Source: Ferruginibacter sp. (GTDB lineage Bacteria; Bacteroidota; Bacteroidia; Chitinophagales; Chitinophagaceae). From it: 64,000 nt of DNA. Under the pieces are notes generated by a model. That model was not told the origin of the DNA. It saw only the letters and a program-made list of their open reading frames with translations, and searched no databases. The position numbers and the translations under genes are program-made. Location: the NCBI GenBank assembly GCA_039920245.1, contig JBDSEE010000120.1:27036-91035 (forward strand), given 5' to 3'. Positions 1,107 through 25,345 of the stretch are shown here, in pieces (the first letter of the stretch is position 1; each line of letters starts with the position of its first letter).

Positions 1107-1121
1107 TCAAAGCATGTACCA
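1107..1121 (-). promoter_or_regulatory. Sigma54-like -24/-12 element (TGGTACATGCTTTGA)
   Basis: GG-N10-GA, 30 nt upstream of the ATG at 1077; one of about 10 similar elements in the island. Confidence 0.5.
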
Positions 1122-1160
1122 ATTCTTTTGATGAGTTTTTATAAAGTTTTTTTGATTCTT

Positions 1161-1178
1161 TGTAGAAGCTTTTCCTCA
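1161..1178. promoter_or_regulatory. Palindromic candidate enhancer (UAS) TGTAGA-AGCTTT-TCCTCA
   Basis: Same 18-bp motif recurs at 6099, 15476, 19150 and 25272. Confidence 0.55.
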
Positions 1179-1398
1179 TGCTGTGTATTATGAATAGTTA
1201 AAAGCCAATACCAGTTCACGTTTCGGGCAATTAAAAAGAAAATAAGATTCAAAAGATGATGATTTCAGGAAAATGGAAGTGAGGTTTTATTAAGGATAGG
1301 ATGCCTGTTATATTTTTCCAAGAGTTATTTATTCCAGGTTTCGCTGCTTTAGGAATGATTATTAATCATTTGTTCATTTTAGGTTGCGCAAATAAATA

Positions 1399-1413
1399 AG
1401 GCATAGAACTTTC
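1399..1413 (+). promoter_or_regulatory. Sigma54-like element (AGGCATAGAACTTTC) upstream of the topoisomerase IB-Ku-LigD operon
   Basis: Nearly identical to AGGCATAAAAATTTC at 6177; the -12 is non-canonical. Confidence 0.4.
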
Positions 1414-1465
1414 TATACAAAAAAGAAAAGTTTTTAAAAAGCTGGCGCAATAATAAACTTGTAAT

Positions 1466-2554
1466 ATGACAACAACCGAAATAGTAGAAAGCCTGTCACC
1501 AAAAGCAATAGAGAAAATTGTGGATGATCCTGAAAAAACAGCCAGGGCAATAAAACTTGTTTATGTTAATGATGGCGATCCCGGAATTACCCGTGAAAAA
1601 AAGTGGAGCGGCTTCACATATTTTGATGGCGAAAATAAAGTAACCGATGAAGCGACCCTTGCCCGTATAAAAAGCCTTGTATTGCCTCCGGCATGGGAGG
1701 CTGTGTGGATATGTAAAAAAGAAAATGGTCATTTGCAGGCGACTGGTTTGGATATTAAAAAAAGAAAACAATACCGGTATCATCCTTCATGGAATGCATT
1801 ACGGAGTCATACAAAATTTTTTAGAATGCAGAAGTTCGGCACTTTGTTGCCAGCTATCCGTACACAACTGGAAAAAGATCTTTCGCTCCAGGATATGCCA
1901 CAGGACAAGATTATGGCTGCTATTGTTTCGCTGATGGAACGAACCAATATAAGAGTAGGAAATAATGTTTATGAAAAATTATACGGTTCCTTCGGGCTCA
2001 CGACTTTGAAAAACAAGCATGTTGCTGTTAACGGCACCGCTATTCAATTTTCTTTCAAAGGCAAGAAGGGCGTGCAACATAGCATTGAACTCAAAAGTAA
2101 AAGACTGGCTAATATCGTAAACAAATGCCGGGAGATACCAGGAAAAGAATTATTTCAATATATAGATGAAAACGGCGAAAAGCATGCGGTGGATTCTGGT
2201 ATGGTAAATGAATACATTAAAAATATATGTGAGGAGAATTTCACTGCAAAGGATTTTAGAACTTGGGCTGGCACCGTTCATGCATTTTTAGCTTTAAAAG
2301 AAAAAGGATTTGCAGAAACAGAAACAGGCGCAAAAAAAATAATGGTGGAAGCATTGGATAGCGTGGCAAAAAACCTGGGAAACACCCGAACAGTTTGTAA
2401 AAAATATTATGTGCATCCAAGCCTGATGAATTTATACGAGACTGGGGACCTGAAAAAATATTTTAATCAATTGGATGAAATTGAGACTACTCAAGAAAAG
2501 ACCGGCCTTACTTCGGAAGAAAAAATTATCATGAAAATATTAGAAAAACACTAA
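1466..2554 (+). CDS. DNA topoisomerase IB (bacterial, poxvirus-like)
   Basis: RKQYRYH, IRVGN, KDFRTW, LGNT and VCKKYYVHP catalytic motifs; 362 aa. Confidence 0.95.
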   Translation: MTTTEIVESLSPKAIEKIVDDPEKTARAIKLVYVNDGDPGITREKKWSGFTYFDGENKVTDEATLARIKSLVLPPAWEAVWICKKENGHLQATGLDIKKRKQYRYHPSWNALRSHTKFFRMQKFGTLLPAIRTQLEKDLSLQDMPQDKIMAAIVSLMERTNIRVGNNVYEKLYGSFGLTTLKNKHVAVNGTAIQFSFKGKKGVQHSIELKSKRLANIVNKCREIPGKELFQYIDENGEKHAVDSGMVNEYIKNICEENFTAKDFRTWAGTVHAFLALKEKGFAETETGAKKIMVEALDSVAKNLGNTRTVCKKYYVHPSLMNLYETGDLKKYFNQLDEIETTQEKTGLTSEEKIIMKILEKH

Positions 2555-2565
2555 CCATTAACAGC

Positions 2566-2817
2566 ATGGAAAACATAGAAATAACATTAAACTACCGGGG
2601 AGCAGATATCGATATCTTAATAACAGCAGAAGAATATTGTAAGGGCAATATTTATCCCGTAGAAATGAATGGCAGATATGCATGTACGATTTGTATGGAT
2701 GAAAATGAAGATTGGACCATCATGCGTGAAGCAGATGGAACCACACCGTTTATAGAAGGAGATCTTTTAAAACCGCTCTTGAAAAAACTGCAATATGAAT
2801 TACAATATGCAGCTTAA
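2566..2817 (+). CDS. Small acidic hypothetical protein between topoisomerase IB and Ku
   Basis: 83-aa ORF with 11- and 10-nt gaps to its neighbours; resembles the C-terminal half of ORF 24659-25144. Confidence 0.75.
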   Translation: MENIEITLNYRGADIDILITAEEYCKGNIYPVEMNGRYACTICMDENEDWTIMREADGTTPFIEGDLLKPLLKKLQYELQYAA

Positions 2818-2827
2818 ATAAAATATT

Positions 2828-3604
2828 ATGAGACCATTATGGACAGGTGCAATAGGTTTTGGACTGGTTAATATACCCGTCAAACTTTATAGCGCTACAG
2901 AATCAAGCAATCTTGACCTGGATATGCTGGACAAAAAAGATCACAGCAATATAAAATTTAAAAGGGTAAATGAAAAGACAGGCCAGGAAGTAAAATTTGA
3001 AAATATTGTAAAGGGATACATGATCGGCAGCAAGTATGTAGTGCTGGATGACAAGGATTTTGAAAAAGCAAATGCCGTAAAAACAAAGCTGATAGAAATA
3101 AGTGATTTTGTAAATGAATCAGAGATTGACAGTATGTACTATGAAACACCTTATTACCTGGCTCCCGACAAATCCGGAATGAGGCCGTATGCATTATTGA
3201 GGGAAGCATTGATAAAAACAAAAAAAGCCGGCGTGGCAAGTTTTGTAATGAGAAACAGAGAGAACCTGGCGATATTAAGAGCGTCGGGCGATGCAATAGT
3301 TCTTAACAGGATAAGATTTGAGGAAGAGATACGGGAAACAAAAGATCTGGAACTTCCCAAAAAGACGGAAGTGAAACCTGCAGAATTAAAAATGGCTGTA
3401 AGCCTTATTGATCAACTGACAGCGAAATTTGATATTTCAAAATATAAAGATACCTATACCGAAGCGCTGTTGAAACTGATACAGGCAAAATCGAAAGGTA
3501 AAAAAATTGCAACGCCTACTTTAAAGGTTGTGCACAGCAAAACGCAGGATCTTATGGAACAATTAAAAGCAAGTCTTACAACAAAGCGTAAAAAAGCATC
3601 CTGA
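2828..3604 (+). CDS. ku: Non-homologous end-joining protein Ku
   Basis: [31 protein letters not shown] and [10 protein letters not shown] motifs with a basic tail. Confidence 0.97.
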
Positions 3605-3606
3605 TC

Positions 3607-4224
3607 ATGAGCCTGGCAAAGTATAAAGAAAAAAGAAATTTTAAAGTTACCCCGGAGCCATCTTCGGTTAAGAAAGTTGCGACAAAAAAACTTTCTTTTG
3701 TTGTGCAAAGGCACAAAGCTTCGCACCTGCATTATGATTTCAGGTTAGAGATGGATGGGGTTCTTAAAAGTTGGGCGGTACCAAAAGGTCCCTCTTTAAA
3801 TCCTGCTGATAAGCGGCTCGCCATGATGGTAGAGGATCATCCATACGATTATAAAGATTTTACAGGCATTATTCCTGAAGGCAATTACGGCGCAGGCATC
3901 GTGGAGATTTGGGACAAAGGAAGTTATACGGCATTAACAGACGATGCTAAAGCAGATGATGAAAAATTATTGAAAGCCGGTCTGAAAGCAGGCAGCCTGA
4001 AATTTGTATTGAAAGGTAAAAAGCTAAAAGGCGAGTTTGCCCTTGTAAAACTAAAGAACAATAAGGCAGGAGATAATTCCTGGTTACTGATAAAACATAA
4101 CGATGCATTCGCCGTGCAGGATGAATATAATAGTGAAGAAGAAACTCCCGCCAGTTCTCCCATAAATAAATGGCTTGCTGAAAATAAGAAACCTGCAAAA
4201 AAAAAAGCTTCTTCACAGCAGTAA
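3607..4224 (+). CDS. ligD: LigD 3'-phosphoesterase (PE) domain protein, possibly the N-terminal part of a frameshifted LigD
   Basis: FVVQRHKASHLHYDFRLE, LKSWAVPKGPS, EDHPYDY and GNYGAG. Confidence 0.93.
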   Translation: MSLAKYKEKRNFKVTPEPSSVKKVATKKLSFVVQRHKASHLHYDFRLEMDGVLKSWAVPKGPSLNPADKRLAMMVEDHPYDYKDFTGIIPEGNYGAGIVEIWDKGSYTALTDDAKADDEKLLKAGLKAGSLKFVLKGKKLKGEFALVKLKNNKAGDNSWLLIKHNDAFAVQDEYNSEEETPASSPINKWLAENKKPAKKKASSQQ

Positions 4225-4259
4225 AATCTAGTCGGAAACTTACATCATATATTAAACCA

Positions 4260-6095
4260 ATGCTTGCCAAAGAAACGGACAAGCCATTTGATAATGAAGA
4301 ATGGATATATGAAATAAAATGGGATGGTTATCGAGCCATAAGTGAAATAAATAATAATGCCGTAAAACTCTATTCACGCAATGGCAATGATTTTTCTGGC
4401 AAGTTCCCTCTTATAATAAATGATTTAAAAAAAATAAAACATGATGCTGTTTTAGATGGAGAAATCGTTGTGCTAAATGAAGAAGGTTTTCCTGATTTTC
4501 AGAAAATACAGGATTATGAATCAAACACCCATTTTCCCCTGATCTATAATGTATTTGATCTATTGTCGCTGGACGGAAATGATTTGTACCATATCCCATT
4601 AATTGAACGTAAGGCCCTCTTAGAAAAATTACTGAAGAAAAATGAAGTAATCAAATACTCAGATCATGTAACGGGAAACGGTAAAATCTTTTTTGATGCG
4701 GCTGCGGAAAAAAACCTGGAAGGAATAATGGCTAAAAAAGCTGACAGTGAATATCATCCGGGTGCAAGGTCAAATGATTGGTTAAAAATAAAAAACCATA
4801 AAACTGCAGATGTAATTATAGCAGGTTATACTGAGCCAGGCGGATCGAGGGAATATTTTGGGTCGCTTGTATTGGGCATGATGAAAAAGGGTAAATTGGT
4901 TTATGCCGGCAATGCAGGAACTGGCTATAATGAAAAGACACTTGCAGACCTTCATGGGTTGATGCAGAAAAGAATTATCAAGCAGTCTCCATTCACCGAA
5001 AAAATTCCAGGCAGTCAATACATCAGCTGGGTAAAACCGGAGTTGGTTTGCGAAGTTAAATTCACTGATTGGACAAAAGATGAAAAATTAAGGCACCCTG
5101 TTTTTTTGCAATTAAGAAATGATAAACCCATAAAAGAAACTGACATGGAAAAGCAAAAGCCCGTTAAGCTAAAGAAAGAGCCATCATCTGAATTAATCAT
5201 TACGCAAGGGAAAATAAAAGTACCTGTTTCCAATCCGGGCAAATTATATTGGCCTGAAGAAGGGATTACAAAAAAAATGCTGGTGGAATATTACCAGGAG
5301 ATTGCTTCATATATTTTACCATTTTTGAAAAACAGGCCGCAGTCATTAAAGCGAAATCCGAACGGAATAATTGACAATGGATTCTTTCATAAAGATGCAG
5401 GAGAAAAAGCACCTGAATTTGTAAAATCATTTCCTGTGCAATCAGGATCAGCTGATAAAATAATTGACTATATCATTTGTAATGATAAAGCAACTCTTGC
5501 ATATTTAAATAATCTTGGTTGTATAGAACTTAATCCATGGCATAGCACGATTAAATATCCTGGCAAACCAGATTACATGATTATTGATATTGATCCTTCT
5601 GATGAAAATACTTTTGACCAGGTAATTGAGTCTGCTTTAGTATTTAAAAAATATTTAGACAAGGCTGGTGTGAAATCATTTTGTAAAACTTCGGGCGCAA
5701 CCGGCTTACATATTTATGTTCCGATGGCACACAAATATGAATATGAAGAAGTAAAGAATTTTGCACAGATTTTATGCATGATCGTAAGTGAAGAACTTTC
5801 TTCTTTCACCACAGTTGTTAGAAATTTAAAGAAGCGTGGTAATGATAAAATCTATTTAGATTTTCTACAAAACAGGAGCGGGCAAACCATATCTTCAGTT
5901 TATAGCGTGAGGCCAAAACCGGGTGCAACTGTTTCAATGCCGTTGGCCTGGAAAGATATAAAAGAAGGACTTTCCCCTCAGCAATTTACCATACATAATG
6001 CAGCAAAAATTATCAAAAAAAGACCTGATATTTTTAAGGGTATCCTGGGTCCTGGAGTTAGCATCAATAACTGCCTGAAAAAGCTAAATGCCTGA
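4260..6095 (+). CDS. ligD: DNA ligase D, ligase plus primase-polymerase domains
   Basis: EIKWDGYR adenylation motif, EGIMAK, WLKIK, then a POL domain (SNPGKLYWP, IDIDP, KTSGATGLHIY). The frame is open upstream to 4188. Confidence 0.96.
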   Translation: MLAKETDKPFDNEEWIYEIKWDGYRAISEINNNAVKLYSRNGNDFSGKFPLIINDLKKIKHDAVLDGEIVVLNEEGFPDFQKIQDYESNTHFPLIYNVFDLLSLDGNDLYHIPLIERKALLEKLLKKNEVIKYSDHVTGNGKIFFDAAAEKNLEGIMAKKADSEYHPGARSNDWLKIKNHKTADVIIAGYTEPGGSREYFGSLVLGMMKKGKLVYAGNAGTGYNEKTLADLHGLMQKRIIKQSPFTEKIPGSQYISWVKPELVCEVKFTDWTKDEKLRHPVFLQLRNDKPIKETDMEKQKPVKLKKEPSSELIITQGKIKVPVSNPGKLYWPEEGITKKMLVEYYQEIASYILPFLKNRPQSLKRNPNGIIDNGFFHKDAGEKAPEFVKSFPVQSGSADKIIDYIICNDKATLAYLNNLGCIELNPWHSTIKYPGKPDYMIIDIDPSDENTFDQVIESALVFKKYLDKAGVKSFCKTSGATGLHIYVPMAHKYEYEEVKNFAQILCMIVSEELSSFTTVVRNLKKRGNDKIYLDFLQNRSGQTISSVYSVRPKPGATVSMPLAWKDIKEGLSPQQFTIHNAAKIIKKRPDIFKGILGPGVSINNCLKKLNA

Positions 6096-6098
6096 CAC

Positions 6099-6116
6099 TG
6101 TGGAATTATGTCCACA
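6099..6116. promoter_or_regulatory. Palindromic candidate enhancer TGTGGA-ATTATG-TCCACA
   Basis: Perfect 6-bp arms, about 70 bp upstream of the sigma54-like box at 6177. Confidence 0.6.
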
Positions 6117-6176
6117 TTCAATTTCCGGGTCTAATATTTTGAAAGCCTGGAAGCTATGTGCAGTAAGGGCTAAAAA

Positions 6177-6191
6177 AGGCATAAAAATTTC
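6177..6191 (+). promoter_or_regulatory. Sigma54-like element (AGGCATAAAAATTTC) upstream of tamB
   Basis: 60 nt before the ATG at 6251. Confidence 0.4.
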
Positions 6192-6250
6192 TTATTATTA
6201 CACAACCTGTTGAATATTAATCATTGAGCAATTCACAGGGATTCATTTTC

Positions 6251-9200
6251 ATGGCAAATACGAAGCTTATTTTACGCAAGACCGGAAGGGTGTTTTTATA
6301 CATCCTGTTATGCGTTTTCATGCTTGTACTCCTTGCATATATTTTTATAAATCTCCCTGTTGGTAAAAGAGTAGTTAGAAATAAGGTTCAAAGTTTTTTG
6401 CAGGAAAAACTGCATACAAAGGTGGCGATTGGCAGTGTTGATTACAGCCTTCCTCAATGGCTAAAGATAAAAGGAGTTTATATTGAAGATCAGCAAAAAG
6501 ATACCCTTGCTTATGGTGAAGAAATTTCTGCCGATCTTGATATGATCAAACTTATGTTTGGTTACACAGACATTGAGAAGTTATATTTTAAAAATATTTT
6601 GTTGAAAGTTAATCGGGGTGAAAATGATACTTCTTTCAATTATAGATTTGTGTTGGATGCATTCACGGGAAATAAGTCGACTACATCAATTCCTGATACA
6701 GCTGCTCTAAAACTTACATTAAATCACTTGGTCTTTGATAATGTTGCCTTGCATTTTTCTGACGAAAAAGTAGGAACAAATTTCAAAGCAAGTATAAAAG
6801 TGCTTAATGCAACGCTCACAAGATTTCAACCCGATCGTGTTCAATTTGGCCTGAGTGATTTTTATGCAAAGGGTATAAATTTCAAAATGAATTCATACAA
6901 GGAAATTATTCCAGACACAACTGTAATTGCTCCTCCAGATTCGATGACCTTACCGGCTTATGCCTTGTTTATTACGGCAAAGAAATTTAACCTGCAGGAT
7001 GTAAATGTTTCTGTAAGCAATTCTGTAAATGGAATGGATTATGGAAACAACATCAACCACCTTGGATTTAGTAATGTCATTTTTAGTTTGGGTCAGTCCA
7101 TTGCTATTGCAGATAGTGCAGTACTTGATAGTTCAATAATAAAGCTGGCGCTGCCCGTCACTGCAAAAAATAATAAAACAGATACGGTTGTTAGTCAGCC
7201 ATGGCTTATTAAACTTGGCCAATTAAATATGCGACAGAATGAAATTGCGTTTGATGATATTAATGAACCCAAGAAGGGTGGCTTCGATGCATTTCATATC
7301 GATCTGCAAAATGTAAATACGGATATTCAATCTTTTCTCTACAGTTACGATACTTTGAAAGGTACGGTACGTAATTTTTCCTTTAAAGAAAAAAATGGCT
7401 TTAGTGTAGACAGCCTGCATGTAAATTATTTACAAACTCCTACTCAACTTACTGCTACCGAATTATATTTTAAAACTCCCCAGACCCTGTTGCGTGATAA
7501 AATTGAATTAACTTTTGATACGGCATCTGCAACCAAAGCATTAAGAACAAAAAACAGTATTGTAGCAGCCACCATAAGTAATAGTGTAATTGCATTTAAT
7601 GACCTGTACCAGGTGATGCCATCCATAAGATCCAGTTTTCCACCTTCAAAATTTGCAAACCTTAGTCTTCATATCAACACAGAACTAAGAGGAAATCTTG
7701 AACATATTTATTTGCCATACCTGCAACTAAGCGGCCTTACAGGTAGCAGCCTGAGTGCCCACGGAAATCTATACAATGTTTCAGAACCCCGTTTCTTTTC
7801 TTACGATCTTATTATTGAGAAAAGCAGGATAACAAAATCTGACCTGCTCAAGTTTATACCGGCAGGAAATGCAGCTGCCATGCAAAAGATCCCTTCCGTA
7901 TTTTCATTAAGTGGTCATATAACCGGCAACTCGAATAACGTTGTTGCTGATGTAAAAACATCGGCCCAAGGTGCATCATTCAATGGCAGGATTGCTTTAC
8001 ATAATATTTCAAATCCTGCATTACTTACCTACGATTTGGATATCAGGTCGGCAGATATCAATAAGAATTTTATCATGGCATTTTTGCCTCCCGGATCAAT
8101 TCCTTCGCAAATAAACCTCCCGGAAAATATTAAGGCAACCGGTACTATAAAAGCAACGGATAACAGCGTAACGTTGAACACCAGGTTAAATACAAGTTAT
8201 GGCAAGGCAAATGTAAAAGGCTACCTGAATAATTATAAAAACCCTGAGCTGGTAAAATACGATCTTGATATGAATCTCGCAGGCTTTAATGTAGGAAGGC
8301 TGATAAGACAGGATAGTATACTTGGATTAGTGAGCGGTCATGTAAATGCAAAAGGCAGGGGATTCAATTATAAAACTATGGTATCGGATATTAATGGAAA
8401 CCTGGATGCATTGACATACAAAGGCTATACATACCATGATATTTTATTTACTTCCAGCTTTAAAAACGGAATTATTAATAGCGAAGGAAAAGTAAATGAT
8501 GATAATCTTCGCATGAAATATAATTTGCTGGCAAATGTACAAGGTGAATATCCTACAGTAGATGCTAAGGTAAGAATTGATACAGTACAGCTACAGGCAT
8601 TGCATTTTTACTCAGACACTTTGAATGCATCTTTTACTGCAGACATAAAAATGAATGATACGAGGCCAAGAAACCTTGATCTGCATGTAATCATCGACAG
8701 CACATTCCTTCAGTTAGGCACAGAAAAATCATTCTTGGATAGCATGGTGCTTGTGGGTACAAGCAGTGCAGGAATTGATGATATCAGGTTCACAGCTCCG
8801 TTTGCTGAAATTCATGCAAATGGTGCATTTGATTATGATAAGGTAGGCACATCGCTGGCACAATACATTAATAATTATTATAAATTCTCAAATACAAAAC
8901 CCGTTACTATTCCGGATCAGCAGTTAACTTTCGAGGCCAATATTCAACGCCACCCCATTGTATTGTATGTTGTACCTGGTTTGTACGATTATAAGGATAT
9001 AAATATCAAGGGAAGTTATTCATCAGCATTGCAGGATAGTGCATTGAATTTTACAGCTTCGCTGCCTTATGTTTTTTATGGCGATTACATTTTACGATCA
9101 GGAAGAATAAATGTTGCATCCAGGAATGAAAAATTGAATTACGATTTAAAATTGGACACGTTAAGTTTTTCTAAGTACACCTTTTATGGGAATTCGGTTA

Positions 9201-11479: not shown

Positions 11480-11480
11480 A

Positions 11481-14998: not shown

Positions 14999-15053
14999 TA
15001 TGATAGTTTTATCCCCGGACTTTATTTTTTCTAAAACTGATATGCTGTGAGTA

Positions 15054-15409: not shown

Positions 15410-15424
15410 GCTAAAATGCTGCCA
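15410..15424 (-). promoter_or_regulatory. Sigma54 -24/-12 promoter (TGGCAGCATTTTAGC)
   Basis: Canonical GG-N10-GC spacing, 45 nt upstream of the ytxH-like ATG. Confidence 0.65.
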
Positions 15425-15475: not shown

Positions 15476-15493
15476 TGAGTAATTATTTCTACA
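15476..15493. promoter_or_regulatory. Palindromic candidate enhancer TGAGTA-ATTATT-TCTACA
   Basis: Lies between two divergent sigma54-like boxes. Confidence 0.5.
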
Positions 15494-15556: not shown

Positions 15557-15571
15557 TGGCATGTTTATTTG
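15557..15571 (+). promoter_or_regulatory. Sigma54-like element (TGGCATGTTTATTTG)
   Basis: 58 nt upstream of the ATG at 15629; non-canonical -12. Confidence 0.35.
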
Positions 15572-16831: not shown

Positions 16832-16878
16832 TAACTGGTGCACAAACAATTTTGACACATAAACCTAAATCAAAAAAC

Positions 16879-17055
16879 ATGAAACAGTTAACAAACATTT
16901 TCTACAGTATTATCATCTTATTAGCTATTACAGTGAGTATGACGAGTTGCGAAGCAATCGCAGGCATATTTAAAGCTGGTATGTGGAGTGGTATTATAAT
17001 AGTAGCTCTTATTGTAGGACTTATATTATATTTTGTAAGCAGGTCAAGAAAATAG
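16879..17055 (+). CDS. Small membrane lipoprotein-like protein (58 aa)
   Basis: Signal peptide with lipobox MTS-C, then EAIAGIFKAGMWSGIIIV TM helix and a basic tail. Confidence 0.75.
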   Translation: MKQLTNIFYSIIILLAITVSMTSCEAIAGIFKAGMWSGIIIVALIVGLILYFVSRSRK

Positions 17056-17072: not shown

Positions 17073-18224
17073 CTATATTGTATCAGATGGAGTGTTAGAA
17101 ACGGTAGTCACTACCGTTTTTCTTTTTCGGGAAGCCAGCCTTTCAATACTCCTGGCAAGTTTTCCTTTTTGGCCGGCAGTATCATCTCCCATCAGCATGC
17201 CCCAGGGTTTAAGATCATCTATCCTGTCAAAAATTATTTTTAATATTGCAATAGTAGGAAGTGCCAGGAATACTCCAGACAAACCGATGAGAGTTCCACC
17301 AATCACTACTCCCACAATAGTCACGAGCGCATTTATTTGCACCTTACTTCCTACTATACGAGTCATCAGGAAATTACTATCAATAAAATGTATTATTTCA
17401 AAACTGAGAATGATCCATGCGATATCGCTTAGATGAGTAGAAGTAGTAAGCGTTACAAGAGAAGCGAAAACAATACCAGTAAGTATACCCACATATGGAA
17501 TGATATTTAAGATAGCAGTAAAAATTCCGAGAAAGATTGCATACTTCACTCCAATAATAAGCAGTACTGTGGAATTAGCTACTGCTACTATGGCCATTTC
17601 AGTAATAAGGCCCAGCATGTATTTTTGCACAATGCCCTTTGATTCCTGCAACACCTCATGTATCTGGGGTTCGTGCGCCTTATTAAAAACAGCGAGTAAA
17701 AACTTTCTTATCATATGCCTGTAATGCAAAATAAGGAAGGTGTATATGGCTACCATAATAATGTAGATCATAGTACGGGTGATAGTAAAGACAGTTTCAC
17801 CAAGGACTTCGGAGCCACTCTTTACATCAGCGGTGGCTGTTTCAATCATGGATGTCTGTTGTTTTGCAGTTACATTAAATTTCTGCTGGATCCATTCCTG
17901 TAGTGTGTTATAATGAGCGTGCAGGTGCCGGCGTATAGAAGGAATATCCTGTAAAAAACTGGCCATCTGGTGGGAGAAAAAATAAATTATACCACCAATG
18001 ACACATAAGGCAAAGATGATAGATACAAGGTTTGCGCCTGCTTTTGGAAAGCGTAATTTATTTTCCAGGAAATTTGTAACAGGTAATAATAATATAGAAA
18101 GCAAGATGGCAAATGCTAGCGGCACAAATACATTTTGTCCGTAGGTAATAAAGACTACCAACAGGGTAAGCATCAAAAGTTTAATAGTAAATTGGATGTA
18201 AAAAGGAAGCAGCTTAAAGTTCAT
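17073..18224 (-). CDS. AI-2E (PerM/YhhT) family transporter
   Basis: Multi-TM; VPLAFAILLSILLLP, LNIIPYVG and GVFLALP motifs. Confidence 0.92.
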   Translation of the reverse strand: MNFKLLPFYIQFTIKLLMLTLLVVFITYGQNVFVPLAFAILLSILLLPVTNFLENKLRFPKAGANLVSIIFALCVIGGIIYFFSHQMASFLQDIPSIRRHLHAHYNTLQEWIQQKFNVTAKQQTSMIETATADVKSGSEVLGETVFTITRTMIYIIMVAIYTFLILHYRHMIRKFLLAVFNKAHEPQIHEVLQESKGIVQKYMLGLITEMAIVAVANSTVLLIIGVKYAIFLGIFTAILNIIPYVGILTGIVFASLVTLTTSTHLSDIAWIILSFEIIHFIDSNFLMTRIVGSKVQINALVTIVGVVIGGTLIGLSGVFLALPTIAILKIIFDRIDDLKPWGMLMGDDTAGQKGKLARSIERLASRKRKTVVTTVSNTPSDTI

Positions 18225-18260
18225 CTCTATATTTCTTTTTTCTATTGTAAGAAATTATTA

Positions 18261-18503
18261 TCAATTAAGCAATGTACCTTTTAATCCATAATTACTTGCT
18301 TCTATTGCATAAAGAACTACATTTTTTTCTGGCTCGGTCCTGTTCTCATAGCGATATGCTTCCGTTATTTCCAGTTCATGAGTCTTGAAATTCAAGTCTT
18401 TTTCCGGGCAATGGAAATAGTTATTTTTTTTTATAAAATGGTGGGTATATCCTTCATTTTGTAAATGTTCCAATGCATTTTCTATACTGGTGTAATCGGT
18501 CAT
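18261..18503 (-). CDS. Small Bacteroidota-family hypothetical protein, short form (paralog of 22795-23148)
   Basis: MTDYTSIENALEHLQNEGYT...YRYENRTEPEKNVVLYAIE...GLKGTLLN, ending in TGA TAA TAA. Start set at ATG 18503. Confidence 0.7.
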   Translation of the reverse strand: MTDYTSIENALEHLQNEGYTHHFIKKNNYFHCPEKDLNFKTHELEITEAYRYENRTEPEKNVVLYAIEASNYGLKGTLLN

Positions 18504-18546
18504 ACTTCTATAATTAAAGAGAAGCCCAGCCTCGATAAATTTACTA

Positions 18547-19002
18547 TCAGGCGAAACGGGCATTATTTAGCATTTTAATTTTCATAAAAGAAATTCTCAA
18601 GGCGTTTAACTGGTACAGCATTATATTTCTAAGGTTTGCAAGAGGTAGGTATTCATTTAAAAGATCATTATAAGCATTAATAATGCTGTTTTCAGAATTG
18701 GTGCAAATATTAGTAAGCTCATTCCCTTTGCCGGGAATATATGATGGGCTGGTATTTTCAAATCTTTCGAAGTAATCCATGAGGATATCTGTATCAAGCC
18801 GGTATGGAATACCGTAGGTTTTAAGTTGCGCAGTGATTTCATCTGCATATTGAATGCTTTCTGCTGATAAGCCATATAGAGCTGTTCGAAGATTACAATC
18901 TTCAACTTCTTCTGCTACAATTTCAAATGCAGCCTTATTACTGCATAAAAATTTTAGAAGTCCGCATAACTTATCAGAAACGCTGTTGTTTAAAACTTCC
19001 AT
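18547..19002 (-). CDS. Divergent ferritin-like four-helix bundle (DUF2383/PA2169-like)
   Basis: AFEIVAEEVEDCNLRTAL and SENSIINAYNDLL helical pattern. Confidence 0.6.
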   Translation of the reverse strand: MEVLNNSVSDKLCGLLKFLCSNKAAFEIVAEEVEDCNLRTALYGLSAESIQYADEITAQLKTYGIPYRLDTDILMDYFERFENTSPSYIPGKGNELTNICTNSENSIINAYNDLLNEYLPLANLRNIMLYQLNALRISFMKIKMLNNARFA

Positions 19003-19064: not shown

Positions 19065-19079
19065 GAATAAACTATGCCA
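19065..19079 (-). promoter_or_regulatory. Sigma54-like element (TGGCATAGTTTATTC)
   Basis: 63 nt upstream of the ATG at 19002. Confidence 0.4.
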
Positions 19080-19149: not shown

Positions 19150-19167
19150 TGAGGAAATATTTCTACT
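19150..19167. promoter_or_regulatory. Palindromic candidate enhancer TGAGGA-AATATT-TCTACT
   Basis: About 80 bp upstream of the 19065 box. Confidence 0.55.
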
Positions 19168-19179: not shown

Positions 19180-19584
19180 CTAATTTAGTAGCTGTTCTAC
19201 AGTTTTATAAATAACGTCCCTGGTAAAAGGTTTACCAATAAAATAGTCGGCACCTGCTTTCATTGCCTGGTTTCTGTCAGCGGCTGTGTCATGTGCAGTA
19301 ATCATAACAATTTTTACAGTTGGATAGTTGCTCTTGATAAACTGAATAAAGTTCATTCCCTGTCCATCAGGAAGGTGGTTATCAAGAAAAATTATTCCTG
19401 GTGTTTCGTTCTTCAATGCTACAGCAGCGTTAGATAGTGTAGTTACGTACTCGGCTTCTAAATTTTTTTGCTTTAAAAGGGTACTTAACAGATAGCATAT
19501 ATCCGTTTCGTCATCTATAATTAAGACTTTCAAAATATCATCTTTTATATAAGTGTGGGATTTTGTTGTTTCATTAGTTTTCAT
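19180..19584 (-). CDS. Single-domain response regulator (CheY-like receiver)
   Basis: VLIIDDE, IFLDNHLPDG, MITAH and FIGKPF. Confidence 0.93.
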   Translation of the reverse strand: MKTNETTKSHTYIKDDILKVLIIDDETDICYLLSTLLKQKNLEAEYVTTLSNAAVALKNETPGIIFLDNHLPDGQGMNFIQFIKSNYPTVKIVMITAHDTAADRNQAMKAGADYFIGKPFTRDVIYKTVEQLLN

Positions 19585-19597
19585 AAACTATAAAAAG

Positions 19598-19612
19598 TCA
19601 ATTTTATTGCCA
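19598..19612 (-). promoter_or_regulatory. Sigma54-like element (TGGCAATAAAATTGA)
   Basis: GG-N10-GA, only 14 nt from the ATG at 19584, so the leader would be very short. Confidence 0.45.
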
Positions 19613-19856
19613 ACGACATTTTTATAAATTTATAAATTATAGATATATCTTTATTCGGGTAAATTTAACAAAAAGCATACCCTGTCCAATGTCTGTATTA
19701 TATTGAACTTCAAACTTTAAACAATCTTCGTTACTTGTTATTAGGTAAAAGACGCTTTAAAATATTTACCCGTAAATATGAAAAAAGTAAAAAATTTTAC
19801 GTGATGGGAATCTTGATTGAGGAAAATATGACAGGTGATGTGAGGAATTTGTTACA

Positions 19857-19871
19857 TGGTACAATTATAGC
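19857..19871 (+). promoter_or_regulatory. Sigma54 -24/-12 promoter (TGGTACAATTATAGC)
   Basis: Canonical GG-N10-GC, 25 nt upstream of the yihY-like ATG; likely also drives the NtrC-type gene. Confidence 0.6.
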
Positions 19872-19895: not shown

Positions 19896-20822
19896 ATGAA
19901 AAAAAAAATTTGGTCTTTTTTCCGATTTAATAAGCAGGTATTTACAGAATTCATAGCAGACAATGTGCTTAAGTACAGTGCTTCTTTGGCCTATTATACA
20001 ATATTATCATTGGCTCCTCTGCTTATTATTATTCTATATATCTGTGGTTTATTGTTTGGAAAAGTGGCTATCTCAGGCGAATTATATAATCAGATGAAAG
20101 ACTTGGTAGGGAATTCTGCAGCACTTGAAGTCCAGTCCGCTATTCAGAACATTCATTTAAGTAAAGGGAATGTATTGGCAACATCGCTGGGTGCAATAAT
20201 ATTGTTTATAGGAGCTACGGGTATATTTGGTGAAATGCAGGATTCATTAAATAAGATTTGGGGATTGCGTACAAAAACCCGGAAAGTTTGGTGGAAATTA
20301 TTATTAGACAGAGCTATTTCATTCTCGTTAATTATTAGTCTCGGTTTTGTACTCATCGTTTCATTACTTATTAATGCGTTAGTTGCGGCTATAAGTACCA
20401 AAGTAGGAAGTATTTTCCTGGGCACCGGAGAAGAAGTTTTGATGATATTGGATAATATTACCTCTGTTGCCATCACAACTTTATTATTTGGTACTATTTT
20501 TAAAGTATTGCCTGATGCAAAAATAAAATGGAAAGATGTAATGATCGGTGCCCTGATTACATCATTGTTATTTATGCTGGGTAAATATGCAATAGGCTAT
20601 TACCTGGTCAAATCAAATCTTGCAGATATATACGGGGCAGCAGGATCTGTTATGATTATGATGATTTGGGTTTACTATAGTTCAGCTATTTTGTACCTTG
20701 GAGCAGTATTTACAAAAGTGTATGCAAGTAATTTCGGTGGCAAAATTTATCCGAGCGATTTTGCTGTATGGATAAAAATTGAAGAAGTGCCGGTACCTGA
20801 TGTTACTTTAAATGAAAAGTAA
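19896..20822 (+). CDS. YihY/virulence factor BrkB family membrane protein
   Basis: SASLAYYTILSLAPLL, LNKIW and YGAAGSVMIMMIWVYYS motifs. Confidence 0.93.
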   Translation: MKKKIWSFFRFNKQVFTEFIADNVLKYSASLAYYTILSLAPLLIIILYICGLLFGKVAISGELYNQMKDLVGNSAALEVQSAIQNIHLSKGNVLATSLGAIILFIGATGIFGEMQDSLNKIWGLRTKTRKVWWKLLLDRAISFSLIISLGFVLIVSLLINALVAAISTKVGSIFLGTGEEVLMILDNITSVAITTLLFGTIFKVLPDAKIKWKDVMIGALITSLLFMLGKYAIGYYLVKSNLADIYGAAGSVMIMMIWVYYSSAILYLGAVFTKVYASNFGGKIYPSDFAVWIKIEEVPVPDVTLNEK

Positions 20823-20854
20823 AAAATTACCCATATAAAAAATAAATAATAATT

Positions 20855-22303
20855 ATGAAGAAAAAGGTACTTATTATAGATGATGATCTGGATATGTGTA
20901 CACTTTTAAGTCGCTTTCTTACCCGTAATGGATACCAGGTTGACTCGGCACATTCAGGCGCAAAAGGGATTTTAAAATTTAAAGAAGAAAATTTTGATAT
21001 CGTGATATGCGATTATCGCCTGGGAGATAAAGAAGGCAAGGATGTACTCCAGGAAATTAAAGCTATTTCGCCACGAACTATTGTATTAATAATCACAGGA
21101 TATTCAGATATCAAAACAGCTGTAGATGTTATTAAAATGGGTGCATATGATTATATAACAAAGCCATTGGTGCCAGATGAAGTACTGACAGTTTTGAATA
21201 ATGCGCTGAATAGTGTTAATGACGGTGGTTCTGCATCTAATGCCGCATTAAATGCAAATATTAAAGGCATTACTTCAAAACTTTCCGGTGCAAAACATCT
21301 CACTATAAACAATGAGTTTCTGGTAGGAGAAGCGGGAACAACAAAGGATCTGTATAACCAGATAGAAATAGTTGCTCCAACTAATTACAGCATCATTTTA
21401 TATGGAGAGAGCGGCACCGGTAAAGAAGTTATTGCAAAAACAATCCATAGCCTTAGTGACCGGAGAGATAAACCATTTGTGGCAATGGATTGCGGTACGC
21501 TATCCAAAGAACTTTCGGGTAGCGAACTTTTTGGTCATGTGAAAGGAGCATTTACCGGAGCGCTTACAGACAAAGAAGGACATTTTGAACTTGCGAATGG
21601 AGGTACCTTATTTTTAGACGAAGTAGCAAATCTTTCTTATGAAATTCAGGCATCTCTGTTAAGGGTGATACAAGAACGAAAATTTAAAAGAGTTGGTGGC
21701 AATAAAGAAATGCCGGTGGATGTTCGCATCATTGTAGCCTCAAATGAAAACCTTCAGGAAGCTTACAGGAAAGGCAAGTTCAGGGAAGATCTTTATCATA
21801 GGTTCAATGAATTCTCCATTAATCTTCCGCCACTAAGAGAAAGAAAAAAAGACATTCCATTGTTTGCAAATTTCTTTTTGCAAAAAGCTAAGGCAGAATT
21901 AAACCGGGATATAGATGATTTTGATAATGAAGTAATGCAAATGTTTACAAGCTATTCATGGCCTGGAAACCTACGGGAGTTTAGGAATGTAGTTCGCAGG
22001 GCTGTTCTTCTTACACAGGAAGGAAAGATCAGTGCAAAAACACTTCCCTGGGAAATTACCAATCCATCAGATTCGCCGCTGTCTCATACACCTCACCCCG
22101 GTTCCATAGCCGAGGAACAACCCGTAATTTTTGTTAAAAAAGACTATGACCTTAAAGATGCTGCCAGCAAAGCAGAATACGAAGCCATCATGAATGTCCT
22201 GAAAGAAGTGAATTTTAATAAAACCAAGGCAGCAGAAATATTAAAGATCGACCGTAAAACACTTTATAATAAAATAAAAAGTTTTGAAGAATCGAATAAC
22301 TAG
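20855..22303 (+). CDS. Sigma54-dependent response regulator (REC-AAA+-Fis HTH, NtrC family)
   Basis: REC domain, GESGTGKE, intact GAFTGA, LFLDEV, WPGNLRE and a C-terminal KAAEILKIDRKTLYNK helix-turn-helix. Confidence 0.96.
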   Translation: MKKKVLIIDDDLDMCTLLSRFLTRNGYQVDSAHSGAKGILKFKEENFDIVICDYRLGDKEGKDVLQEIKAISPRTIVLIITGYSDIKTAVDVIKMGAYDYITKPLVPDEVLTVLNNALNSVNDGGSASNAALNANIKGITSKLSGAKHLTINNEFLVGEAGTTKDLYNQIEIVAPTNYSIILYGESGTGKEVIAKTIHSLSDRRDKPFVAMDCGTLSKELSGSELFGHVKGAFTGALTDKEGHFELANGGTLFLDEVANLSYEIQASLLRVIQERKFKRVGGNKEMPVDVRIIVASNENLQEAYRKGKFREDLYHRFNEFSINLPPLRERKKDIPLFANFFLQKAKAELNRDIDDFDNEVMQMFTSYSWPGNLREFRNVVRRAVLLTQEGKISAKTLPWEITNPSDSPLSHTPHPGSIAEEQPVIFVKKDYDLKDAASKAEYEAIMNVLKEVNFNKTKAAEILKIDRKTLYNKIKSFEESNN

Positions 22304-22324
22304 GCTTAATCATATATACGGTTA

Positions 22325-22465: not shown

Positions 22466-22794
22466 AAGGAAAAATGTTATTGCGTTGAGATCCAATAATT
22501 TCTTTCATCATATTGCAGACAAGGTTGTATTATATCTGCAATCAATGCGGGTAAAAATTAATTGCTACAGTTTAAATTCATCAGTATGGTTTACCGCCTG
22601 TAAATTAGGATCTACCATTTTTTTTATTTGTGTAATCAAAGATGGTCCTTTACTGCTTTTAGGAGTTGTGTGCTCTTAATTTCTTATTTACAGCTATATT
22701 AAAATTTCGGGAAAACCATTACATAAAAAGCGGTATAAATTTGGATAATAAAGCGAAGTAACCCCGATTTCAGAACCAGATAAAATTATAAGTT

Positions 22795-23148
22795 ATGTCA
22801 AATACTTCTCATGATGAAATGGATACTCTAAGTACGGTTATGGAAAAACTGAGGCTTAAAAAACAAGACAATGAATTTCGAATGCTGGAAAAAGGATTTG
22901 GTAGCGGGAATGGAAAATATTATCAGCCCAACGAACTAAAAATAATTCGCACCTATCGTTTTGAAGGAGACTCAAATCCTGCAGATAATAGTATTCTTTA
23001 CCTTATCGAAGCAAACGATGGTAAAATAGGATATAGTATCGATGCCTATGGTGTATATAGTAACAACGATGATGAGCGATATGATGATTTTATCAGGAAA
23101 ATTCCTATGGAAGAAAGAGATGAGCAACAGATCTTTGGTGAAAATTAA
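22795..23148 (+). CDS. Conserved Bacteroidota hypothetical protein (YRFEGxSNP...DAYG family)
   Basis: TYRFEGDSNPADNSILYLIE...GYSIDAYGVYS; paralog of 18261-18503. Confidence 0.8.
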   Translation: MSNTSHDEMDTLSTVMEKLRLKKQDNEFRMLEKGFGSGNGKYYQPNELKIIRTYRFEGDSNPADNSILYLIEANDGKIGYSIDAYGVYSNNDDERYDDFIRKIPMEERDEQQIFGEN

Positions 23149-23219
23149 CATGGGGTTTAGCAAGATTTTATAGATACGTAAATTGCCAGTACCTTTTAAG
23201 TGGATAGAAATTAAGCAAT

Positions 23220-24674
23220 ATGCAAGCAACTGATTGGGCTTTAAAGATTTTGATAATAGATGATGATGAAGATGATTTTTTTATTACCAGCGAATATATC
23301 CGCAGCATACCAGGTAATAAATACAAGATAGACTGGTGTTATAAATATGATGAGGCGCTTGCACATGTACATAAGCGGCAATATGATCTTTACTTCGTAG
23401 ATTATCATCTTGGTGCCCGCACAGGATTGGATCTCATAAAAGAAGCTTCTCACCAAAAAATAGAAGAGCCTTTTATTTTGCTTACAGGAAAGGGTAATCA
23501 AAAAATTGACATTGAGGCTATGCAGGCAGGAGCTGTAGATTACCTGGTAAAATCTGAAATGGATACTGAAAAAATGGAACGCTGTATAAGGTATTCCATT
23601 GAGCGGTCCAGGGCAGTAAAGGCATTAAAGGCTAATGAACGAAAGTTTAGAAAGATATTTGAACGATCAACCGATGCAGTGTTTTTAATAGATGAAAATT
23701 TTGTTTTCGTTGATGTTAACGATGCTAGCACACGCCTGTTTGAATATAGCCATAAGGAAATTCATCAGCTGAACTTATTTACACTCTTTGATAATGAAGA
23801 GGACATTGCCTTAGTACAATCGCAATTGCAGTATTCAAAAGAGGTAGAAGATAAAGAAGTGCTGATGAAAACTAAAACGGGTAATTTAAGAAACTGCATA
23901 CTTTCTTTATCGCAGGAAAAAAATCAAAATGGGTTTTATTACCAGGGGTTAATACATGACATAACTAATCTGAAAAAAGCAGAGAAGGCAATGTTGCGTA
24001 CAGAAAAAAGAAATGTTGCAGACAGGCTTGTACACGTTCTGGCACATGAGGTTAGAAACCCCTTGAATAATATTAATCTGTCTCTTGAACAGTTATCCCC
24101 AGACGTTCTGGAATCTGACAATAGAATTTTCATAGACATCATACAACGGAATAGTAAGCGTATTGAGAGCCTGATAACGGAACTTTTAAATAGTAGCCGG
24201 CCTGCATCAATTAAGCTTGAAGAAATCTCTTTGCAATACATAGTAGAAGAAAGTTTAGCTGTGGCAAAAGACCGGCTTACGCTGAAGAAAATTTCATTAA
24301 TGAAAGTTTTCCCAGATGAAGATTATACCATAATGGCTGATGAAGAAAAACTGAAAATAGCAATACTTAATATTGTACTAAATGCTGTAGAGGCAATGAC
24401 AGAAGGGGATGGTAAACTTACGGTTGAAATAAGGAAGGAATCAGGAAAGATTCAGTTAACAATATCAGACAATGGGTGCGGTATAAGCGATGAAAATCTG
24501 CAGAGATTATTTGAGCCTTACTTTACAGCAAAAAGAAATGGTATGGGCCTGGGCCTGGCTACTACTATTAATATTTTGCAATCCCATAAAGCAGAAGTAG
24601 AAGTTAAATCTAAACTTGATGAAGGAACAAGCTTTATTTTAAGCTTTTTTGAAACAGATCAAATGAGCGAGTAA
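23220..24674 (+). CDS. Hybrid sensor histidine kinase (REC-PAS-HisKA-HATPase)
   Basis: ILIIDDDEDD REC, a PAS domain, LAHEVRNPL H-box, NAVEA and GMGLGLA. Confidence 0.95.
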   Translation: MQATDWALKILIIDDDEDDFFITSEYIRSIPGNKYKIDWCYKYDEALAHVHKRQYDLYFVDYHLGARTGLDLIKEASHQKIEEPFILLTGKGNQKIDIEAMQAGAVDYLVKSEMDTEKMERCIRYSIERSRAVKALKANERKFRKIFERSTDAVFLIDENFVFVDVNDASTRLFEYSHKEIHQLNLFTLFDNEEDIALVQSQLQYSKEVEDKEVLMKTKTGNLRNCILSLSQEKNQNGFYYQGLIHDITNLKKAEKAMLRTEKRNVADRLVHVLAHEVRNPLNNINLSLEQLSPDVLESDNRIFIDIIQRNSKRIESLITELLNSSRPASIKLEEISLQYIVEESLAVAKDRLTLKKISLMKVFPDEDYTIMADEEKLKIAILNIVLNAVEAMTEGDGKLTVEIRKESGKIQLTISDNGCGISDENLQRLFEPYFTAKRNGMGLGLATTINILQSHKAEVEVKSKLDEGTSFILSFFETDQMSE

Positions 24675-25144
24675 AGCGGCAATACTTCTACCACATGCTG
24701 AATAAATTTTGAATCCAAATTTTGAATATTCATTGAGCTGTTACCCATGATCTGCCATTCTTCATTTTCCATTTCTACCAGTGTGTATAAGTACTTTTTA
24801 TTTGAGTTATATATTTCGTACATCTTGTGATTTCCTTTTAGAAATCCAACAAATCCAAAAGATACTAATTTGCCCTGCATATGTTGTTTATGCCAGGTTA
24901 GCATTTTTGGTACGTGTACAGGCTGGCGCATAAACGGCCGGATACCTGATCCTATCATTTGTGCAAGCTCGGAAAACCCAAGATCTTCCTCAATCCATTT
25001 ACCTGTTTCCACATCTGTGAAAAATATATTTTCGTAACCATTCTCAAAAAATACCTTATACATACAATGATGTCTGTTAAAGATTTCTTCAAACCACGCA
25101 CGGGTTTCTATTTCCCCCATCTTGATTTTTAAAACTTTGTTCAT
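24659..25144 (-). CDS. Hypothetical protein, apparently two tandem small beta-meander/helix units
   Basis: 161-aa ORF; the C-terminal half resembles ORF 2566-2817. Confidence 0.7.
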   Translation of the reverse strand: MNKVLKIKMGEIETRAWFEEIFNRHHCMYKVFFENGYENIFFTDVETGKWIEEDLGFSELAQMIGSGIRPFMRQPVHVPKMLTWHKQHMQGKLVSFGFVGFLKGNHKMYEIYNSNKKYLYTLVEMENEEWQIMGNSSMNIQNLDSKFIQHVVEVLPLYSLI

Positions 25145-25166
25145 ATAATGGTTTATTAAAAATATT

Positions 25167-25181
25167 TCACAAATCCTGCCA
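25167..25181 (-). promoter_or_regulatory. Sigma54-like element (TGGCAGGATTTGTGA)
   Basis: GG-N10-GA, 23 nt upstream of the ATG at 25144. Confidence 0.5.
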
Positions 25182-25271
25182 ATAAATAGTTATAAAATTT
25201 TGTGTATTTCTTGTTTTTACAACCCAATTTTTCAGGATTTTTATTATAAATAGTTACTTATTTCCTTTGTT

Positions 25272-25289
25272 TGTAGAATTAATTTCCCA
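25272..25289. promoter_or_regulatory. Candidate enhancer TGTAGA-ATTAAT-TTCCCA
   Basis: Lies between divergent sigma54-like boxes; two mismatches in the right arm. Confidence 0.45.
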
Positions 25290-25330
25290 GTTCATTTTAC
25301 ATTTATTCAAGGTCAGCAATGAAATATGGT

Positions 25331-25345
25331 TGGCATAAAAGATGA
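25331..25345 (+). promoter_or_regulatory. Sigma54-like element (TGGCATAAAAGATGA)
   Basis: GG-N10-GA. No ORF follows, only a short terminator-ended segment. Confidence 0.5.

Follow-up and report, generated by a model that had tools for sequence, protein, structure and literature searches.

A candidate sigma-54 regulon of stress-type genes with a local two-component activator in a conserved Ferruginibacter gene cluster

Promoters recognised by sigma-54 (RpoN) have the consensus TGGCAC-N5-TTGC, in which a GG occupies -24/-25 and the -12 element follows one helical turn further on. To our knowledge, Bacteroidota lack RpoS, SigB and EcfG/PhyR systems, and we know of no mechanism worked out so far for the general stress response of this phylum. 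The closest described system is the SM4 regulon of Flavobacterium psychrophilum, for which sequencing of RNA 5' ends revealed sigma-54 promoters at groESL, dnaK, grpE, htpG, lon and clpB, together with an osmotic/low-nutrient cluster (PMC9723704). Sigma-54 control of chaperones and envelope functions has been described in the Bacteroidota (PMC9723704; PMC12316311); the Bacteroidetes are not covered in Francke et al. 2011 (PMC3162934). The subject here is a set of -24/-12 promoter boxes in a Ferruginibacter species (Chitinophagaceae) of soil or freshwater, carried by a stretch of 64,000 nucleotides (GenBank assembly GCA_039920245.1, contig JBDSEE010000120.1, positions 27,036 to 91,035), called the window, by which positions are numbered. 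Positions 600-25400 of the window are a conserved chromosomal cluster, in which the boxes stand before genes for DNA end joining, membrane proteins, small proteins and a two-component activator.

It is likely that the stress-type genes of this cluster form a regulon driven by sigma-54 and by the activator encoded among them. A first inspection of the letters (the sequence-only reading) had proposed a sigma-54-run stress regulon, and the proposal held up: the boxes are conserved and oriented, the genome has one rpoN, the cluster encodes a GAFTGA activator, a palindrome lies upstream of the boxes and the gene content is of the stress type. Each of the ten 15-mers it had listed occurs exactly once, at its coordinate and on its strand, and nine of them end 13-62 nt before a start codon; the tenth, at 25331, is followed by a hairpin terminator and T-run instead of an open reading frame (ORF). 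An eleventh box, before the gene h22795, was absent from that list (Table 1). In these boxes the -24 element is TGGCA or TGGTA; the -12 element, rich in T, closes with TTG or TAG and does not need the C at -12. The ten listed boxes keep the exact -24/-12 spacing, as do 164 orthologous sites; a few sites (dao, groES) are better fitted by an N6 spacing. A loose [TA]GG[CT]A word at the same distance range occurs in 18.7% of about 2100 upstream regions genome-wide, so the bare count of boxes is weak evidence, whereas their conservation is strong evidence.

Conservation was followed from activator orthologues, which occur in 13 of 24 genomes of the genus, in one genome from a different family and in 80 further public loci, with identities of 63-81% in Ferruginibacter, Terrimonas, Puia and Segetibacter and of 55-58% in Pedobacter and Mucilaginibacter. 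Nine of the ten listed boxes recur, with place and orientation kept, before orthologous genes of up to about 50 other genomes, and the comparisons of upstream regions spanned 13-80 other genomes. The ytxH box, TTGGCArYATTTTrG at about 40 nt 5' of the ATG, is present in 12 of 13 upstream regions (the window and 12 orthologous regions) and, in a second independent set, in 29 of 40 at a position weight matrix (PWM) score of at least 10. At the same score, the box of the single-domain response regulator gene rr19180, TGGCA-N5-ATTG[T/A/C], is found in 37 of 50 regions (about 45 of 50 by eye), and that of h24659 (TGGCAGGnTTTnTG) in 10 of 13 orthologues, the TGGCA word being visible in all 13. The brkB-activator box, TTACATGGTAyAATTATAG, is kept in about 25 of 31 orthologues, the tamB box, [A/T/C]GGCAyAATnnTTTC, in 10 of 14, and the box at 25331, TGGCAy-N5-mwTGm, in nine of 14 loci. 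The pnpox box (TGGTACAnnnnTTTGAA) recurs in three of four orthologues and in loci L090 and L094. The topIB box is of the tamB type and is found in 4-5 loci that have topIB as first gene; it reads GGCAyAAnnnTTTC in genomes G010, G012 and G022, with the palindrome described below further upstream in G010 and G012. Support is moderate for the dao box, with TGGCATnnTTAT standing before dao or h16828 in some related loci. The eleventh box, yGGTAyAAnnTTGG, is present in 24 of 32 h22795 orthologues; the element had been considered as a sigma-A -7 box (TAAATTTG), a candidate dropped on account of the conserved GGTA at -24 spacing in those same orthologues. The 19065 box shows no conservation in h18547 orthologues, whose upstream gene is a small DUF5670-type gene. 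In loci L027, L033, L043, L046 and L054 this small hydrophobic gene (MGNLLYIIAVILVI...) stands between the single-domain regulator gene and h18547; it is missing at that place in the window, and a copy with its own box is found on contig C116.

The conservation is position-specific among genomes at 40-80% protein identity, in which the surrounding intergenic DNA is unalignable. Of the 164 orthologous sites, 92% have T at -15, 86% have G at -13 and 30% have C at -12; these figures are partly circular, as many of the sites were picked by PWM, and the invariant GG is so by construction. Taken as sequence elements, the boxes are supported as conserved, oriented promoter-type elements with exact sigma-54 spacing.

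Gene order is kept as well. The activator gene is syntenic with rr19180, ytxH-holX, brkB and h22795 in Chitinophagaceae, and with the hybrid kinase gene and ytxH in Pedobacter. In about 50 of 54 Chitinophagales-type loci rr19180 is divergent from the (brkB-)activator genes, and it is absent from Pedobacter and Mucilaginibacter loci. Of 80 loci, 40 have ytxH-holX within 8 kb of the activator gene, 32 have h22795 and 30 have brkB; the pair of h22795 and the hybrid kinase gene is syntenic in 22-32 loci. The wiring is kept in dozens of related genomes, and it appears to be previously undescribed. The GC content is 0.32-0.39 all through the cluster, the same as in the remaining window. The sequence-only reading had spoken of an island; a foreign origin is ruled out by this uniform composition and by an arrangement that is syntenic across a family.

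Outside the cluster, the genome (3.6 Mb, 221 contigs) was scanned with PWMs built from non-window sites only. In a first PWM the ytxH sites had too much weight, and the conserved rr19180 box scored just 6.4; a family-balanced PWM took its place. At a score of at least 14 the first PWM gave 13 tandem forward and four reverse matches, with 1.4 in shuffled sequence, 16 in divergent and none in convergent regions; at a score of at least 12 the family-balanced PWM gave 28, six, 4.7, 34 and two, respectively. A scan against shuffled background, which the sequence-only reading had put forward as a check, therefore yields an excess in promoter orientation, and as forward matches exceed both reverse and shuffled ones the motif is a real oriented promoter class of roughly 50 members. 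A scan with the canonical TGGCAC-N5-TTGC at up to one mismatch was too strict a tool: its 101 matches were mostly coding, with about eight plausible promoters.

The genes behind this promoter class include, by Pfam, those for AHSA1/SRPBCC, BrxC/YtxJ, DUF5670, CsbD and DUF892 (YciE/F type) proteins, a PhnB-like protein, MsrB, a Gly-zipper lipoprotein and a single-domain regulator; RecN and MoxR were added by eye only. The DUF892 box is kept in 10 of 15 orthologues. A general-stress-type gene content, as first proposed, is thus borne out by YtxH, PNPOx-like, Ku and LigD genes in the cluster and by CsbD, DUF892, BrxC/YtxJ, AHSA1, MsrB, Gly-zipper and DUF5670 genes elsewhere. This gene content is what suggests a role in general stress or desiccation; taken together, the output resembles a programme for general stress or dormancy, with non-homologous end joining (NHEJ) in addition.

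Only two boxes, those at 15410 and 19857, have the canonical GC at -12, as the sequence-only reading had stated. The weak -12 element it described is borne out; its suggestion that this is peculiar to the lineage is not, as mapped F. psychrophilum promoters are alike. The sigma-54 (SM4) promoters whose start sites were mapped in that species have TAGT, CTGA, TTGA and TTGT at -12 (PMC9723704 Table S2); examples are remF TTGGCACGATTTTAGTTGTG, groS TTGGCATAATTTCTGAAAAG and clpB TTGGAATAACAATTGACGAT, and the remF promoter has been tested by mutagenesis (PMC9723704). In the present genome, boxes of the form TGGCAx-N5-TTGA stand 23-71 nt before the starts of heat-shock genes (Table 1). Since these heat-shock genes and F. 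psychrophilum share the variable -12 base, the relaxed -12 element looks like a property of Bacteroidota sigma-54 promoters in general and not of this regulon, and the demand for a GC at -12 seems inapplicable in this phylum.

A second element, absent from the list of the sequence-only reading, accompanies the boxes. It is an 18-bp imperfect palindrome, TGwGGAA-N4-TTCCwCA, which lies 27-146 nt upstream of them. At 12 or more of its 14 specified positions, it is found up to 220 nt upstream of 36 of 114 boxes, compared with none of 114 downstream and three of 114 in shuffled sequence. Most tamB orthologues with a box have GGGGAA-N4-TTCCCC or TGTGGAA-N4-TTCTACA upstream, and a further example from relatives is GGGGAATTATTTCCCC. 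At the activator operon the palindrome-like site is kept in relatives as TGwGGAATTTGTTACA-TGGTA. In Pedobacter, the palindrome TGTAGAAAAAAATTCCCA lies about 70 nt 5' of the activator gene, and a box TTGGAACAATATTTGT precedes ytxH, directly after the kinase gene. The weak, unconserved box at 19065 gains some support from the palindrome found 70 nt further upstream. Before the DUF5670 gene stands a weaker copy of the element. On contig C112 (9629-10362), a divergent pair of genes shares a perfect palindrome (TGTGGAAAAAAATCCACA) with a box to either side; the products, of 73 and 98 aa, are small proteins that are membrane-bound or secreted. Outside the window, no other strong target combining palindrome and box was found. 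Apart from the DUF5670 gene and this pair, no common palindrome was found upstream of the CsbD, DUF892, AHSA1, BrxC and MsrB promoters. To judge by position, the layout is that of an enhancer-binding-protein site, and the palindrome is probably the binding site of the local activator.

That activator (20855-22303) matches Response_reg (7.9e-26), Sigma54_activat (2.4e-65) and HTH_8 (6.4e-11) in Pfam. The intact GAFTGA loop reported by the sequence-only reading lies at residue 231, and Walker A (GESGTGKE) and Walker B (LFLDE) motifs are present, as expected of an NtrC-type activator. The genome has a single Sigma54_DBD match; this RpoN, of 493 aa, can be aligned over its full length with solved sigma-54 structures and retains the RpoN box ARRTVAKYR and the helix-turn-helix STVSRV. 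The hybrid histidine kinase (23220-24674) is the probable sensor. Among ytxH copies from 40 relatives, the box is present in 14 of 18 copies from genomes with the activator and in one of eight from genomes without it, absence meaning no match at E <= 1e-100 (Fisher p = 0.003, a value that ignores shared ancestry), and most of the copies with a box from activator-bearing genomes also have the palindrome. As the palindrome is largely confined to the cluster and a few other loci, two further activators of the genome may drive many of the stress-type sigma-54 promoters elsewhere.

The box at 25331 precedes a candidate small RNA. A block (GGTTTTTCATAGGATATTGGATTTAAAA, then a hairpin and T-run) is conserved in nine genomes and begins 13-16 nt after the -13 G; block AGGTTTTTCATAGGATATTGGATTTAAAA, a GC hairpin and the T-run are near-identical in nine related genomes, and the intervening 13-16 nt after the -12 element are variable. 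Conservation begins where a sigma-54 transcript should begin, so the start of the block fits such a promoter. The candidate small RNA has the sequence UUCAU, which might pair with a start-codon region. An Rfam search of window 1-27000 at E <= 0.1 gave no match, the candidate small RNA included.

Table 1. Boxes, palindromes and genes of the cluster (window numbering), and heat-shock boxes elsewhere in the genome (contig:position). The gap runs from the end of the box to the start codon; domain calls for window ORFs are from a Pfam search.
Feature	Position	Strand	Gap (nt)	Sequence or description
Box before pnpox	1107..1121	-	29	TGGTACATGCTTTGA
Box before topIB	1399..1413	+	52	AGGCATAGAACTTTC; T at -13, C at -12
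Box before tamB	6177..6191	+	32	AGGCATAAAAATTTC
Box before ytxH	15410..15424	-	44	TGGCAGCATTTTAGC; best-conserved site, PWM score 22.7
Box before dao	15557..15571	+	57	TGGCATGTTTATTTG; divergent from ytxH
Box before h18547	19065..19079	-	62	TGGCATAGTTTATTC; weakest of the ten first listed
Box before rr19180	19598..19612	-	13	TGGCAATAAAATTGA
Box before brkB-activator operon	19857..19871	+	24	TGGTACAATTATAGC
Box before h22795	22731..22745	+		CGGTATAAATTTGGA; eleventh box
Box before h24659	25167..25181	-	22	TGGCAGGATTTGTGA
Box before candidate small RNA	25331..25345	+		TGGCATAAAAGATGA
Palindrome between pnpox and topIB	1161..1178	.		TGAGGAAAAGCTTCTACA; same element upstream of pnpox/topIB orthologues
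Palindrome before tamB box	6099..6116	.		TGTGGAATTATGTCCACA
Palindrome common to ytxH and dao	15476..15493	.		TGAGTAATTATTTCTACA
Palindrome upstream of 19065 box	19150..19167	.		TGAGGAAATATTTCTACT
Palindrome-like site at activator operon	19841..19856	.		TGAGGAATTTGTTACA; half-overlapping copy abutting the -24 element
Palindrome common to h24659 and candidate small RNA	25272..25289	.		TGTAGAATTAATTTCCCA
PNPOx-like (Gsp26-type) gene (pnpox)	601..1077	-		Target; Pyrid_ox_like 28.3 bits, slightly below curated cut-off
topIB operon	1466..6095	+		Topoisomerase IB, 83-aa protein, Ku, LigD phosphoesterase, LigD ligase-polymerase
tamB and omp85 genes	6224..13772	+		TamB-like (1751 aa; TamB, DUF748) and Omp85-family (Omp85)
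ytxH operon	14265..15365	-		YtxH, holin-X-like membrane protein (holX; Phage_holin_3_6), 130-aa protein
dao and following gene	15629..17055	+		FAD oxidoreductase (DAO), 75-aa protein
h18547 and following genes	17073..19002	-		151-aa protein (weak DUF2383 match), 100-aa protein, AI-2E transporter
rr19180	19180..19584	-		Single-domain response regulator (Response_reg)
brkB-activator operon	19896..22303	+		BrkB/YihY-family membrane protein; activator (REC, AAA+ with GAFTGA, HTH_8)
h22795 and hybrid kinase gene	22795..24674	+		117-aa protein; hybrid histidine kinase (REC-PAS-HisKA-HATPase)
h24659	24659..25144	-		161-aa protein, target; no Pfam family
Candidate small RNA	25358..25418	+		About 60 nt; AGGUUUUUCAUAGGAUAUUGGAUUUAAAA, terminator hairpin, U-run; after 25331 box
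Rho gene	25722
dnaK box	C116:29101			TGGCATAATCATTGA
lon box	C209:29184			TGGCATTATACTTGA
grpE box	C49:1907			TGGCAGAACATTTGA
htpG box	C151:4651			TGGCATCTCATTTGA
groES box	C74:10283

The genes of the topIB-Ku-LigD operon are tightly packed. LigD is split there, with the phosphoesterase ORF (3607-4224) apart from the ligase-polymerase ORF (4260-6095), and in relatives the phosphoesterase part is likewise a separate tblastn match. The Phage_holin_3_6 score of holX (25.6 bits) falls just short of the 28.4-bit cut-off. Within holX, 85 nt 5' of the 130-aa ORF, there is a box-like match (TTTGGCTGGTTTTTATCTTA, score 13, window 14743-14762, minus strand), which could serve as an internal promoter or have arisen by chance. 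We infer the dao start at 15629 from the beginning of the domain, and the genes for the 151-aa protein, the 100-aa protein and the AI-2E transporter are probably a single transcript from the 19065 box. A non-coding stretch of about 490 nt (window 22304-22730), with no Rfam match, separates the activator gene from h22795.

In the proposed mechanism, at least eleven transcription units of the cluster would start at Bacteroidota-type sigma-54 promoters. The hybrid kinase would sense a stress or growth-arrest signal and phosphorylate the REC-AAA+-HTH activator, which would then bind the TGwGGAA-N4-TTCCwCA palindromes 27-146 bp upstream of the promoters and spend ATP to open the closed complexes of sigma-54. 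Because the activator operon carries its own box and an abutting palindrome-like site, feedback on the activator is predicted; the single-domain regulator rr19180, itself a target, would probably modulate the flow of phosphate. The output would comprise TopIB-Ku-LigD NHEJ, YtxH and membrane proteins, TamB/Omp85, the Gsp26-like PNPOx protein, the oxidoreductase, small proteins and the RNA of about 60 nt.

Several points weigh against this interpretation. Nine of the 11 boxes lack the canonical GC at -12, and three of these (topIB, tamB and 19065) are also without the -13 G; the topIB and 19598 boxes have modest balanced-PWM scores (9.1 and 9.3), the latter being conserved by eye. In relatives' upstream regions no own box was found before ai2e, hk, h18261, holX, omp85 and h14265, all of them genes inside operons. 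The circularity of the site statistics belongs here too. Strong palindromes (at least 13 of 14 positions) are nearly confined to the cluster and the C112 pair, the genome has three true sigma-54 activators (the others on contigs C75 and C101), and the palindrome is tied to the local one only by co-location and by a phyletic co-occurrence that is confounded by shared ancestry. A second RpoD-like sigma factor is encoded in the genome, and a sigma-70-type stress factor may exist.

These points give most room to a different division of labour, which we nevertheless regard as unlikely: the boxes would be sigma-54 promoters, and the palindrome would be bound by the C75 or C101 activator or by a dimeric regulator of an unrelated kind, for example a repressor, leaving the local activator to control a subset of the genes or something else. 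The number of activators and the nature of the assignment favour it, and a repressor would fit the palindrome-like site that directly adjoins the -24 element before the activator operon. The palindrome, however, lies upstream of the boxes and is absent downstream, and it is a TGT-type inverted repeat as bound by NtrC-family HTH_8 proteins. It clusters round the local activator gene in Ferruginibacter and stands just before that gene in Pedobacter, and the ytxH box and palindrome vanish in genomes without this activator.

It is more improbable still that TGGCA-N6-TTG marks the operators of another factor, or the promoters of the second RpoD-like or an extracytoplasmic function (ECF) sigma factor, with its -24/-12 likeness a coincidence. 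The -12 C, a hallmark in Proteobacteria, is unconserved here, and a candidate factor is at hand. The two RpoD-like sigma factors with region 3 (C70:10074-10949 and C205:69128-69985, 291 and 285 aa) look closely similar by eye, and one may be group-2-like. Against this stand two conserved blocks one helical turn apart, as only in sigma-54 promoters, a fixed orientation and distance to start codons, and a motif equal to that of the mapped groS, clpB and remF promoters of F. psychrophilum and of the heat-shock boxes here; ECF and sigma-A promoters of Bacteroidota differ in geometry (-33 TTTG, -7 TAnnTTTG). The conserved motif being of the -24/-12 type and not RpoD-like, a dedicated sigma-70-family factor is not indicated. 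This agrees with the sequence-only reading, which had called RpoS-, SigB- and EcfG-type factors untypical of the phylum, and the second RpoD-like factor is the part of the picture that does not. The idea that AT-rich intergenic DNA has yielded the boxes by chance, which could appeal to the commonness of the [TA]GG[CT]A word and to a motif, distance range and start codons chosen after the fact by the sequence-only reading, is already refuted by position-specific conservation in dozens of genomes amid unalignable flanks and by the excess over reverse strand and shuffles.

Preferring the regulon of sigma-54 and the local activator for this cluster, one may ask how far it extends. A broader claim, which we hold only tentatively and at somewhat less than even chance, is that Chitinophagales and Sphingobacteriales run a general stress or dormancy-type response by sigma-54, this activator and the hybrid kinase, including NHEJ, YtxH/CsbD protectants and a dedicated small RNA, in place of sigma-S, sigma-B or EcfG. 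If true, stress-induced NHEJ would be linked to sigma-54, and an ATP-gated, phosphorylation-controlled switch would stand in for the sigma-factor competition of other phyla. The model is testable, offering a promoter matrix, an 18-bp candidate activator site, a set of activator, kinase and single-domain regulator, and a target list, and cultured relatives with the system include Terrimonas ginsenosidimutans and Pedobacter and Mucilaginibacter species. Sigma-54 scans trained on Proteobacteria, which lean heavily on the -12 GC, probably miss much of the Bacteroidota regulon. In the literature searched, no paper was found tying sigma-54 to Ku/LigD, YtxH or CsbD-type genes in Bacteroidota.

The nearest likeness is to the SM4 regulon of F. 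psychrophilum (Guerin et al. 2021, PMC9723704), which belongs to the same phylum and has the same TTGGCA-N6-T(T/A)G promoter with a variable -12 base; both genomes have three activators and heat-shock genes with the same boxes. In contrast with the present cluster, the F. psychrophilum work lists no Ku/LigD, YtxH, CsbD or DUF892-type targets and gives neither an activator binding site nor an assignment of activators to targets (PMC9723704), whereas here a specific activator, a candidate palindrome and a syntenic target cluster are defined.

The architecture resembles that of NtrC-family two-component systems (NtrBC, ZraSR, GlrKR/QseEF; also PspF and RtcR) in its REC-AAA+(GAFTGA)-HTH_8 activator with a kinase gene close by, in -24/-12 promoters that have inverted repeats upstream, and probably in autoregulation. 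It differs from them in an output of NHEJ, YtxH, TamB/Omp85, the Gsp26-like protein and a small RNA, in a kinase that is a soluble hybrid REC-PAS protein, in an extra single-domain regulator that is a conserved target, and in a -12 element without a conserved C.

The target list, in turn, is like those of the sigma-B (Bacillus), sigma-S (Escherichia coli) and EcfG/PhyR (Alphaproteobacteria) regulons, with CsbD, YtxH, YtxJ and Gsp26/PNPOx-like proteins in common, and further overlap in YciE/F-type DUF892, an OsmB-like Gly-zipper lipoprotein, MsrB and Ku/LigD. In Sinorhizobium, Ku/LigD depend on a stress sigma factor. Those systems work through sigma-70-family factors under partner switching or proteolysis, whereas the sigma-54-type promoters described here would need an ATP-driven activator, placing control of the response in the phosphorylation of an enhancer-binding protein.

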